From: Promethearchaeota archaeon
GTDB taxonomy: Archaea; Asgardarchaeota; Lokiarchaeia; Sigyniarchaeales; SOKP01
DNA: 14,239 bases
Assembly (NCBI GenBank): GCA_016839585.1
Contig: JAEOTZ010000005.1
Span: 1-14,239 of the forward strand
Reading direction: 5' to 3'
Positions 11,096 through 13,911 of this stretch are shown piece by piece; positions within the stretch are counted from its first letter, which is position 1; each line of letters starts with the position of its first letter. Both the position numbers and the translations under genes were made by a program. Below the pieces are notes generated by a model that worked only from the letters and a program-made list of their open reading frames with translations, did not search any database and was not told the DNA's origin.

Positions 11096-12013
11096 TTATA
11101 CATTCAATTCAAAATTGAGGTGATTCAGAAGTTCTTTATATCTATTCCGAATAGTTGCTTCAGTCACCCCAGCAGTTAAGGAAATTTCTTTCTGTGTTCG
11201 ACGCTCCCCTTCCTTTATAGCTGCTACGTATAAAGCAGCTCCTGCTAAACCCGTTGGGGCTTTCCCTGCTGTGATACGATGCTTTTTTGCTAATTTTAAA
11301 ATTGAAGCTGCCCTATTTTGAGTTCTTCCTGAAAGCTTTAATTCAGCGCAGAATCTTGGAATAAAATTTATTGGGGAAGATACTTTAATATTAATTTTTA
11401 ATTCTCTTAAAATTAATCTATAACATCGTGCAACCTTCCTTTTATCAACTGATGCAAATTCAATGAAATCATCAAGAGTTTTTGGTATGTTACTCAATCT
11501 ACAAGATAAGTAAATCGATGCTATTAACATAGCTTCTATGGATCTTCCCCTAATAAGATTTTTTTGAGCCATTTTTCTGTAAATATGAGCTGAAGATTCT
11601 TTTAAACCTTTAGATAAGTTTAGTTGAGAAGAAAATCTATCTAATTCATTCATGGCGTATGCTAAATTTCTATCGATTGATTTATTTGTCCTTGTTCTTA
11701 CATGCCATTTCCTTAAACGATATACTTCTGCTTTCATTTTAGGGCTTATAGCCTTTCCAAAAGCGTCTTTATTTTTCCAGCCTATCATTGTACTTAATCC
11801 TTTATCATGTAAAGTTAGAGTTGTTGGTGCTCCGACTCTAACTTTCTTGTTTGCTTCTTCTGACGTAAATGCTCGCCATTCAGGACCGGAATCGATGATT
11901 TTTTGTAATATTACCAGCCCACATACACTACATATTACCTCACCCCGAGACTCATCTGAAATTAAATTTTTATTGCCACATTCTGGGCATAAATTTAAAT
12001 TTTTTTGAGTCAT
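11096..12013 (-). CDS. tfb: Transcription initiation factor IIB (TFB)
   Basis: Zinc ribbon CPECG...RGEVICSVCGLVI, B-reader IDSGPEWRAF...RVGAP...LHDKGLST, two cyclin repeats (LIRGRS; GKAPTGLAGAALY) and HTH GVTEATIRNRYKEL. ATG 12013 preferred; TTG 12025 possible. Confidence 0.98.
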   Translation of the reverse strand: MTQKNLNLCPECGNKNLISDESRGEVICSVCGLVILQKIIDSGPEWRAFTSEEANKKVRVGAPTTLTLHDKGLSTMIGWKNKDAFGKAISPKMKAEVYRLRKWHVRTRTNKSIDRNLAYAMNELDRFSSQLNLSKGLKESSAHIYRKMAQKNLIRGRSIEAMLIASIYLSCRLSNIPKTLDDFIEFASVDKRKVARCYRLILRELKINIKVSSPINFIPRFCAELKLSGRTQNRAASILKLAKKHRITAGKAPTGLAGAALYVAAIKEGERRTQKEISLTAGVTEATIRNRYKELLNHLNFELNV

Positions 12014-12155
12014 TGAAAGATCCAAATATGTCTACTCTTTTAAAATTCAGCTATTTAATTTCTATAATCATTTTCCCACATTTAAATGTTTGCGTTTCAA
12101 GGATTTGTCGGTTAATAATATACTCAATTTTTAATTTTGGTTTTTTAAATTAAAT

Positions 12156-12193: not shown

Positions 12194-12658
12194 ATGCGAC
12201 ATTTTTATAAGGCTCATGGAAGACATTGCTATCTTCGTTCTTTTCAAACAAAATGCCCAAAATGTGGTGTAGATGTGTTATATTGGGAATGTGCTCATGG
12301 CAGTAAAGTATTTTTTGAATACCCACCCTATGGAAAATTAGTAAGGCATTTTTGTCGATATCAATCAGCTAGGTTTGATAGAAAAAGAAAATTTCCAATA
12401 GTAGTTAAAATTCCAAAAGGTTTATTAGAAAATAGCTCACCAAGTTGTCCAGTATGTGGGAAATTATTTAAAAATAATAAAGATCTCAATAATCATTTAG
12501 AAACTCTAAAGAAGGATGATAAGCTCCATAAAACATTTTTTAAAAATGATTTTGTATTTGAAAATGGCAGTTGGAATAGCAATCAAAAAAAAATTGATCA
12601 AATTAAACTTTATGAAAAACCAAAATTTGGTAGAATTAATATTAAAAAAAAGAAATAA
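12194..12658 (+). CDS. Basic multi-zinc-binding hypothetical protein (Cys/His-rich N-terminal domain plus C2H2-like finger)
   Basis: HGRHC...CPKCG...WECAHGSKVFF...HFC, then CPVCGKLFKNNKDLNNH...H, then a Lys-rich tail. Confidence 0.75.
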   Translation: MRHFYKAHGRHCYLRSFQTKCPKCGVDVLYWECAHGSKVFFEYPPYGKLVRHFCRYQSARFDRKRKFPIVVKIPKGLLENSSPSCPVCGKLFKNNKDLNNHLETLKKDDKLHKTFFKNDFVFENGSWNSNQKKIDQIKLYEKPKFGRINIKKKK

Positions 12659-12785: not shown

Positions 12786-13397
12786 ATGTCAGTTGATCCA
12801 GAAGCTGCGATTCATAATTTAATGCAAGCTGAACCATCGATTATTGCTGCTGTAGTGATCCGTGGAAGGGATATTATCTATTCTACAGATAACTGGGATA
12901 TAAGTGTTGATGTTGGAAGAGTTTTATCAAGTTGGGCCTCCATGAATGCTCAATTTATTATTATTTCAGGAGTGAAATATTCACTTCTGCAGTGCACTTC
13001 AGAAAGATTAGTTGCTACTTCAATTAGAGGGGAAGGTCATATTGTTGGGGCAAAAGATGAAATGCATAAGGTAATTACTTATGTTGAACCAGATGGTCCA
13101 ATGAATGCAGCATATATGGATACTGCTAGAGCATTAGCATCAATGAGCACCCAAGGTCCATATATGGAAGGAAATAGTCAGTTAGGTGCTAAAGGTGCTG
13201 CAATGGGAGGGGCAACCAAACCAAGTATAAATATTGAACCTCATTTAAAAGGTGAGATACAATCATTTTTAGAATGGCTTAAGGATACTGAAGGTCTTTC
13301 AGGATATATCAGTTATTATCTTCAACAAAATAATATCCAGATAATTACTGAGTTATCAAAAATTTATAATGAATTAAGAAAAATTTTTGGCGTTTAA
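12786..13397 (+). CDS. Asgard (Loki-type) profilin with a Gly-rich linker and an extra C-terminal helical domain
   Basis: About aa 1-121 follow the Loki profilin pattern as I recall it: helix, IIAAVVI, YSTDNWDIS, SGVKYSLLQCTSERLVATSIRGEGHIVG, ITYVEPDG, C-terminal helix. About 80 further residues follow. Confidence 0.85.
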   Translation: MSVDPEAAIHNLMQAEPSIIAAVVIRGRDIIYSTDNWDISVDVGRVLSSWASMNAQFIIISGVKYSLLQCTSERLVATSIRGEGHIVGAKDEMHKVITYVEPDGPMNAAYMDTARALASMSTQGPYMEGNSQLGAKGAAMGGATKPSINIEPHLKGEIQSFLEWLKDTEGLSGYISYYLQQNNIQIITELSKIYNELRKIFGV

Positions 13398-13452: not shown

Positions 13453-13911
13453 GTGAGATTTGTGGGAGAAAAAAAAGAAAAAAGTTACTTAAAAAAAATG
13501 AAAAATTTATTTGCTAAAAAACCAAAACTAAAAACTCAAGATGAGAGTATTGATTATCCATCAGAAGAAGATGTAGAATTACAGATTCCAACTATACCAG
13601 AAGCACCAAAACAAAAAGAAAAATTTGCTTTAGATTCTCCTGATTTATCACCCGATGTACTTGAAAGAATAAAGAAAGTAGAATCTCCTGATAAGAAAGT
13701 TGTTTTAGTAAATTGTGAGAGATGTAAAGCAATTATACCTATACCTATTCCAAAAAGGATGGTTTCAAGGTCAAATTTGCCAATAGTTCCTATAAGTTAT
13801 GTTCATATGAACCTCCAAAATAAGGATCAACATTGTATAACAATACATATTGATCATGACTTTGATATTCGAAGACAAAAGATATCTGATGTCATTCTTT
13901 CTTCTGATTAA
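13453..13911 (+). CDS. Hypothetical protein: basic amphipathic N-terminal helix, acidic/Pro-rich linker, C-terminal putative Zn-binding beta domain
   Basis: SYLKKMKNLFAKK; DESIDYPSEEDVELQIPTIPEAP; VNCERC...VPISYVH...HCITIHIDHDFDIRR. Start could be GTG 13453, GTG 13462 or ATG 13498. Confidence 0.75.
   Translation: MRFVGEKKEKSYLKKMKNLFAKKPKLKTQDESIDYPSEEDVELQIPTIPEAPKQKEKFALDSPDLSPDVLERIKKVESPDKKVVLVNCERCKAIIPIPIPKRMVSRSNLPIVPISYVHMNLQNKDQHCITIHIDHDFDIRRQKISDVILSSD

Follow-up and report, generated by a model that had tools for sequence, protein, structure and literature searches.

Background

The closest described relatives of the protein discussed here are the Odin profilin (5ZZA chain P) and Loki profilins-1 and -2 (5YED, 5YEE, 5ZZB), whose structures were reportedly determined by Akil and Robinson in 2018. 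These are single-domain proteins of 119-136 aa that share a seven-stranded fold with two terminal helices. Polyproline is the type of sequence through which formins and Ena/VASP proteins recruit profilin in eukaryotes; to our knowledge, none of the characterized profilins from Loki and Odin binds it. Similarly, we know of actin, profilins and gelsolins in Asgard archaea, but of no machinery that directs where profilin-actin assembles in them. Their nucleation machineries, in the words of one study, “have yet to be discovered” (PMC9433394).

Appendages have been reported on some Asgard actin regulators. The Heimdall and Thor profilins (6YRR, 7PBH) have disordered N-terminal extensions of about 20 aa, a feature of roughly 5% of Asgard profilins that probably arose on independent occasions (PMC8410842). 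The “Zn domain” of Loki2DGel/MKD1-2DGel is found only in Loki lineages, where it lies exclusively at C-termini, behind long charged or Pro-rich linkers; its carriers are an actin regulator and unrelated proteins, and it also occurs by itself as a small protein (PMC9433394). It is marked by an extended Tyr loop together with a zinc site of the form (Cys-X-X-Cys)2, does not bind F-actin, and was proposed by its discoverers to bind a cellular feature (PMC9433394).

In the window, i.e., the whole stretch of 14,239 nucleotides of Promethearchaeota DNA analyzed here, we find a gene whose product compares with these systems as follows. It shares with the Odin and Loki profilins a homologous profilin domain, including the GVKYS...GHIVGA strand region, and differs from them in what follows this domain, namely a linker of about 30 aa that leads to a module of about 52 aa. 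As in the Heimdall and Thor profilins, there is an appendage that may tune function; however, theirs is N-terminal and disordered, whereas the one described here is C-terminal, predicted to be folded, highly conserved, and found in almost all genomes of an order. The layout has its best precedent in the Loki2DGel Zn domain, which likewise combines a flexible leash with a small terminal domain, but that domain binds zinc via (CxxC)2, whereas the module of the window protein is predicted to be a Cys-free three-helix bundle with no sequence relation to it.

The gene and its parts

The features of the locus are:

11096..12025, minus strand: TFIIB gene, which serves as the constant anchor in this neighborhood (Pfam matches to TFIIB, 1.2e-42, and to Zn_Ribbon_TF)
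12194..12658, plus strand: 154-aa protein that combines a Zn-ribbon-like CxxC with a single C2H2 finger (Pfam zf-C2H2, below the curated cut-off)
12786..13397, plus strand: whole gene, profilin, linker and three-helix module (from the ORF list, the translation and 613 full-length homologs)
12786..13148, plus strand: profilin domain, aa 1-121 (phmmer against PDB, AF2, Foldseek, alignment)
13149..13226, plus strand: flexible linker, aa 122-147 (low pLDDT, high column entropy, indels)
13227..13394, plus strand: C-terminal three-helix module, aa 148-203 (AF2 of the module alone, entropy, alignment of 37 copies)
13239-13283, 13296-13325 and 13335-13388, plus strand: predicted helices of the module, aa 152-166, 171-180 and 184-201 (AF2)
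13453..13911, plus strand: 152-aa protein with a basic N-terminus, an acidic and Pro-containing linker and a C-terminal CxxC...H...H domain (translation)

The ORF at 12786..13397 begins with ATG, ends with TAA, encodes 203 aa and is preceded by an AT-rich spacer of 127 bp. The 613 homologs, each of about 200 aa, span the entire protein at 64-95% identity and come from independent metagenome assemblies, which argues that this is a genuine gene, far beyond what chance would yield, and no local artefact. Most of them are annotated as hypothetical. The sequencing runs that contain the stretch come from marine sediment and cold seeps and are all of DNA, with no RNA run listed. A scan with bacterial-type promoter and terminator models, which are not applicable to archaea, returned no sites above those in shuffled sequences.

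The initial annotation had divided the product into a profilin-like domain, a flexible linker and a helical tail, and this layout was borne out at the positions listed above by the ORF translation and by a full-length AF2 model built on an alignment of 33 homologs (pTM 0.57). In that model linker residues 124-150 have pLDDT values below 50, and across 132 full-length orthologs the linker, about 30 aa in length, is the most variable region and is marked by indels, its first half being weakly conserved and its second half a Gly/Ala/Ser spacer of variable length. The mean column entropy across these 132 orthologs is 0.91 bits for the profilin domain, 1.73 bits for aa 121-135, 2.36 bits for the spacer at aa 136-150 and just 0.67 bits for the module; by virtue of this lowest value, constraint on the protein is strongest in the helical tail, above that on the profilin domain itself.

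Within the otherwise variable, low-pLDDT linker we also noted two nearly invariant positions, Tyr126 (13161-13163) and Gly134 (13185-13187). These fall within the pattern S-x-x-x-x-Y-x5-Q-L-G, which may constitute a short linear motif.

The N-terminal profilin domain

The only noteworthy matches of a phmmer search of the PDB sequences were the four Asgard profilins of solved structure, namely those of Odin (5ZZA_P, E 3.2e-13), 7PBH (4.4e-9), Loki profilin-1 (5YED, 6.9e-8) and Loki profilin-2 (5ZZB, 3.8e-7). AF2 models aa 1-120 with pLDDT above 90 as an initial helix (5-15), seven strands and a terminal helix (106-120). Foldseek searches with this model returned 5zza_P as the best match (E 8.5e-11, TM by target 0.83, rmsd 1.5 Å, 34% identity over 113 columns), with TM values of 0.75-0.83 to the Odin, Loki-2 and Loki-1 profilins; all of the top 46 matches are profilins, the Asgard versions being followed by about 40 eukaryotic ones, such as those of yeast, Acanthamoeba, plants and human.

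We also considered a roadblock or longin fold for this domain, the alternative named in the initial annotation, and rejected it, as the first roadblock structure appears only at rank 47 of the Foldseek matches (E 7.5e-4). A hallmark of profilins is a three-strand motif that replaces half of the central helix of the roadblock fold (PMC10933270), and the model displays this motif among its seven strands in place of half the helix; a roadblock or longin domain would instead possess a five-stranded sheet and an unbroken central helix, through which it would homodimerize. The Pfam profilin model PF00235 has no match to the window protein at E <= 1; precomputed matches to it exist for three close orthologs, one of which is named “profilin family protein” by NCBI. 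This model was built mostly on eukaryotic sequences. Taken together, the PDB sequence matches, the Foldseek ranking and the seven-strand topology uphold the original profilin assignment and indicate that residues 1-121 make up an entire profilin domain, which is of the Odin/Loki type.

The window protein, like the Odin profilin, aligns without an insert of 6-7 aa that is seen ahead of the GVKY strand in the paralogs of the Loki-profilin-1 type, both in the window genome and in the closed genome discussed below (G138). We take this insert to be the Loki loop reportedly named by Akil and Robinson in 2018, and the alignment is consistent with the earlier remark that this loop appears to be absent here. 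The window genome, of 3.45 Mb and 99% complete, codes for three profilin domains in all, namely that of the present gene, that of a tailed 215-aa paralog on contig C27 and that of a 137-aa single-domain protein of the Loki-profilin-1 type on contig C43; its actin system further includes an actin of the Lokiactin type (443 bits) and gelsolins.

The C-terminal module

Folded on its own with an alignment of 37 copies taken from different architectures, the module is predicted by AF2 to form a three-helix bundle with a mean pLDDT of 91.5; within the full-length model the values are 73-86. The 37 copies share an invariant Trp and an invariant Gly. The extreme C-terminus of the protein is a conserved ...IFGV, and this terminal ...IFG[VF] is lost in copies where the module is internal. 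The module lacks Cys residues and transmembrane segments and is net acidic, with a charge of about -3 by count of the consensus. The confident prediction for the isolated module and its column entropy, the lowest in the protein, point to a tail that is both folded and conserved, and speak against the unconserved or disordered tail that, by the initial annotation, would have undone its reading.

We then compared the module with known domains. No Pfam family recurred among the matches of the 37 copies at E <= 10, the best hit of a module profile to PDB sequences had an E-value of 0.075, and Foldseek found no match in the PDB. An exhaustive VIA-align search reached a best Z of 5.0, which is noise level for helical bundles, and in the ESM Atlas the module matched only its own family, in the form of three Promethearchaeota “hypothetical protein” clusters. 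The small helical interaction domains that one might suspect here, such as SAM, UBA/CUE, SARAH and docking domains, show neither a recurrent Pfam match nor fold scores above this noise level; a SAM- or UBA-like tail in particular, which the pattern W-[IL]...G-L..Y...N might bring to mind, found no support from Pfam, the PDB profile, Foldseek, VIA-align or the Atlas. Likewise, the (CxxC)2 site that characterizes the Loki2DGel-type Zn domain is missing from the cysteine-free module. A generic three-helix bundle gives no functional clue by itself. A full-text literature search, of incomplete coverage, found no description of the C-terminal module, and we suggest that it defines an undescribed domain family, an earlier description being nonetheless possible.

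Phyletic distribution and origin of the module copies

In a census of 400 genomes sampled across the phylum to which the window belongs, we detected the module in 152 of the 153 genomes of the window's own order, at 1-5 copies per genome. By family, the counts are 133/134 (f1), 1/1 (f2), 14/14 (f3) and 4/4 (f4). Outside this order the module was not detected in any of the 7 genomes that represent the other orders of its class or, overall, in any of about 247 other genomes. All four families possess both a profilin-linker-module protein of 200-238 aa and a separate free-module gene of 50-55 aa. A second module-bearing profilin paralog was added in f1, and a third profilin-module gene is a lineage-specific feature of one genome (G155). 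Fusions of the module to GTPases and to gelsolin are rare, lineage-specific and limited to f1, and may therefore say little about the ancestral role of the module.

A tree of the modules, which comprises only 59 columns and is to be read with care, nests the GTPase-borne modules, that of a 728-aa protein and those of the second profilin paralog within the clade of f1 profilin-borne modules (96/87). This nesting points to the profilin gene as the source of the other fusions, and a GTPase that retains a profilin remnant ahead of its module (P0144, see below) adds to the evidence; hence, we conclude that these extra module copies derive from the profilin-borne copy. The free and the fused modules of f4 cluster together in the same tree (91/83); however, a single clade of all free modules is not rejected by the AU test (p 0.168), and accordingly we make no claim of co-evolution between free and fused modules.

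Other proteins bearing the module

The initial annotation had suggested a search with the tail alone to see whether it is mobile. An exhaustive HMMER search of 1.8 billion cluster representatives, with architectures delimited by module and profilin HMMs and by Pfam, yielded a positive answer. In the Ras-family GTPases P0164 and P0188 the module follows the GTPase domain, in P0144 the order is GTPase, profilin remnant and module, and in P0185 the module lies between a GTPase domain and a gelsolin repeat (gelsolin E 3.7e-4, just under the curated cut-off). It is also found after a divergent second profilin and as short stand-alone ORFs. A search for longer homologs with the module profile was dominated by the 200-aa orthologs and gave no new architecture, and no natural protein with tandem modules was seen among the cluster representatives with the module HMM. 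Giant Ig-repeat proteins (P0236, P0258, P0220) were treated as spurious carriers since their matches are partial and marginal (E about 1e-3). Together with the census, these architectures indicate that the module is a portable domain confined to one order of the phylum. Its homologs are labeled Lokiarchaeota or Promethearchaeota in the databases, which, with the L. ossiferum match described below, places the module in Asgard archaea of the Lokiarchaeia type.

The corresponding loci in the window genome (G000) and in other sampled genomes are:

L003:1498-1659 (G000 contig C60:58968-59111), minus strand: free-module gene, 53 aa, module only
L001:1381-2028 (G000 contig C27), minus strand: second profilin paralog, 215 aa, same module, f1 only
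L029 (G230): GTPase fusion, 474 aa, lineage-specific
L031 (G267): GTPase fusion, 352 aa, lineage-specific
L038 (G202 contig C47): 728-aa protein with a Zn-ribbon, a profilin domain (aa 31-121), the module (aa 232-284) and about 440 aa of probable coiled coil

In f1 and f3 the free-module gene is divergently oriented from a gene whose product, of about 300 aa, carries CxxCxGxG repeats of the DnaJ type (Pfam E-values of 1e-5 to 3e-7, short of the cut-off), and lies upstream of a gene for a DEAD-box helicase. The second profilin paralog is 36% identical to the window protein in the profilin domain and is a divergently oriented neighbor of a gene for a 169-aa Ras-family GTPase. A Rosetta-stone link between this adjacent GTPase and the module-fused GTPases was considered and dropped, because their identity of only 27-28% represents generic Ras similarity and hence no specific GTPase link.

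The module-fused GTPases (P0164, P0185, P0188 and P0144, as well as L029 and L031) have degenerate P-loops, e.g., GEPEVDKS or SDSEVDKS versus the canonical GxxxxGK[ST], and no clear NKxD motif, and may be pseudo-GTPases. Their linkers are Pro-rich (e.g., LPPPHPPPEP in P0201) and often contain CxxC...HxC knuckles.

As a separate observation, many cluster representatives of 390-440 aa join a profilin-like N-terminal domain to about 280 aa of other sequence (P0143, P0155, P0157, P0166, P0178, P0181, P0183, P0191, P0200, P0210, P0212 and P0224). The one of these that was checked, P0143, has a TrmB-type winged-helix domain after the profilin-like domain (Pfam 8e-11), an unexpected union with a transcription-regulator domain.

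Gene neighborhoods

The order PAC2, TFIIB (minus strand), C2H2-type Zn protein (plus strand) and profilin-module gene (plus strand) recurs in f1 and f2, is rearranged in f3 and is undetectable in f4. The C2H2-type gene lies directly upstream of the ortholog in f1, f2 and f3 genomes. Homologs of the CxxC...H...H protein encoded at 13453..13911, for which Pfam returned no match, also stand beside the ortholog in f1, f2 and f3, often downstream or nearby, with an absence noted at L013. We do not equate this protein with the Loki2DGel Zn domain, as it has one CxxC plus His residues versus (CxxC)2; the version in G138 has a Pro-rich linker. In the same genome, a 245-aa membrane protein (L007:4252-4989, minus strand) adjoins the module-bearing profilin gene; its N-terminal stretch appears gelsolin-like by eye, and a Pfam search returned no gelsolin match for it.

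The probable Lokiarchaeum ossiferum ortholog

The closed genome G138 (6,035,313 bp) encodes a module-bearing profilin of 207 aa with a computed mass of 22.83 kDa and, 89.5 kb away, a 127-aa profilin of 14.48 kDa. The supplement of a preprint on L. ossiferum lists GNAMCCOK_02671 (B35_Pro1, 22.82 kDa) and GNAMCCOK_02587 (B35_Pro2, 14.47 kDa), 84 genes apart (10.1101/2025.11.30.690169). Based on this match in the masses and the spacing of the two profilins, we infer G138 to be L. ossiferum B35 and its module-bearing profilin to be B35_Pro1 (UYP46361.1), a probable ortholog of the window gene. The two proteins have the same architecture and the same TFIIB, zinc-finger and CxxC neighborhood, although they are only 33% identical in the profilin domain.

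The available part of that study gives a mean log intensity in the L. ossiferum proteome of 19.5 for B35_Pro1 versus 17.4 for Pro2, and reports that in Lokiactin co-immunoprecipitation the single-domain Pro2 was significant (log2FC 1.07, p 0.0018), whereas B35_Pro1 was not (log2FC 0.31, p 0.17) (10.1101/2025.11.30.690169). Its authors note a bias of the co-immunoprecipitation against membrane-associated proteins, and its profilin passages list B35_Pro1 under that plain name, with no word on the extra domain (10.1101/2025.11.30.690169).

Functional considerations

Drawing on architecture and distribution, we propose that the module is a portable docking or assembly tag, a reading that we favor over the others and hold to be evenly poised. 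It gains its plausibility from the occurrence of the module on Ras-like GTPases and as a free mini-protein within this order. By this proposal, the profilin domain would bind Lokiactin monomers, as characterized Asgard profilins bind actin, and the module, acting in protein-protein docking or assembly on a long leash, would deliver profilin, together with the actin bound to it, to some partner or site that the other module-bearing proteins share. The partner could be another module, the free one included, and the free module might act as a partner or a competitor of the fused one. In either case the tag would set the location or the valency of profilin-actin action. Eukaryotic proteins have leashed C-terminal elements of their own, such as the hypervariable region plus CAAX of small GTPases and the tetramerization helix of Ena/VASP; the likeness to the profilin-linker-module arrangement is one of analogy, with an element that sets location or valency, and not of homology.

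More tentatively, and as a version of the proposal that we think somewhat unlikely, the module might form an order-specific hub, in which module-module or module-receptor contacts would co-localize profilin-actin with small GTPases and the free mini-protein would act as a regulator. This would be an independent, pre-eukaryotic answer to the task that in eukaryotes falls to the recruitment of profilin through polyproline.

It is also conceivable, although in our estimation unlikely, that the module forms homo-oligomers, thereby creating a multivalent profilin that clusters actin monomers as a primitive aid to nucleation or elongation, with the free module capping or dispersing the oligomers. 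For a bundle of 52 aa the module has an unusual hydrophobicity, its large hydrophobic residues numbering 22 and including 7 aromatic ones; this would suit such self-association, as would the coexistence of free and fused copies in all four families and their joint cluster in the f4 part of the tree. However, that cluster is not robust by the AU test, tandem modules were not seen in any natural protein, and, while a dimerizing degenerate GTPase is possible, its function would not be obvious.

The GTPase fusions and the free copy favor a tether or adaptor over a second actin contact, both of which had been offered in the initial annotation. A second contact, whereby the module would bind G- or F-actin and tether the GTPase fusions to filaments, accords with the nature of the fusion partners: profilins, a gelsolin repeat, and GTPases with the potential to signal to actin. 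We nevertheless regard it as very unlikely: the module does not resemble WH2, gelsolin, calponin-homology or other actin-binding folds, the DnaJ-type zinc protein and DEAD helicase next to the free-module gene are not cytoskeletal, and, in the available part of the co-immunoprecipitation study, it is the single-domain Pro2 and not B35_Pro1 that is enriched with Lokiactin.

We consider it highly improbable that the module is an intramolecular regulator, packing against the profilin domain of the same chain and hiding the face that binds actin or lipid until the module is released. Tethering by a flexible linker is indeed typical of autoinhibitory modules, and the near-invariance of Tyr126 and Gly134 at the start of the linker could be read in this light. 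On the other hand, the same module is found on GTPases and as a free protein, the linker is free to vary in length and sequence, and the lower pLDDT of the module in the full-length model (73-86, compared with 91.5 alone), together with a pTM of only 0.57, implies that the model does not confidently dock the module onto the profilin domain.

Least probable of all is a direct membrane tether, in which the module would bind lipid and hold profilin and the lipid-anchor-less Asgard GTPases at the membrane: its position copies the hypervariable linker and C-terminal membrane anchor of eukaryotic small GTPases, Asgard Rab-like GTPases are without prenylation cysteines (PMC10933270), and the co-immunoprecipitation bias noted by its authors in the available text would fit, but the module is predicted to be a folded bundle and not an amphipathic helix, its net charge of about -3 is unfavorable for binding anionic lipids, and it has neither Cys nor a transmembrane segment.

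Conclusions

The module is absent from Pfam and consequently merits a domain-family entry. Practically all genomes of the order to which the cultured Lokiarchaeia belong encode a tailed profilin, and under the docking-tag proposal the module on Ras-like GTPases and as a free mini-protein would offer a concrete bait for the partner. Since cultures, antibodies and proteomics exist for L. ossiferum and MK-D1, the question is testable now. If the more specific hub reading were true, the module would be a missing link between signaling and actin assembly in Lokiarchaeia.
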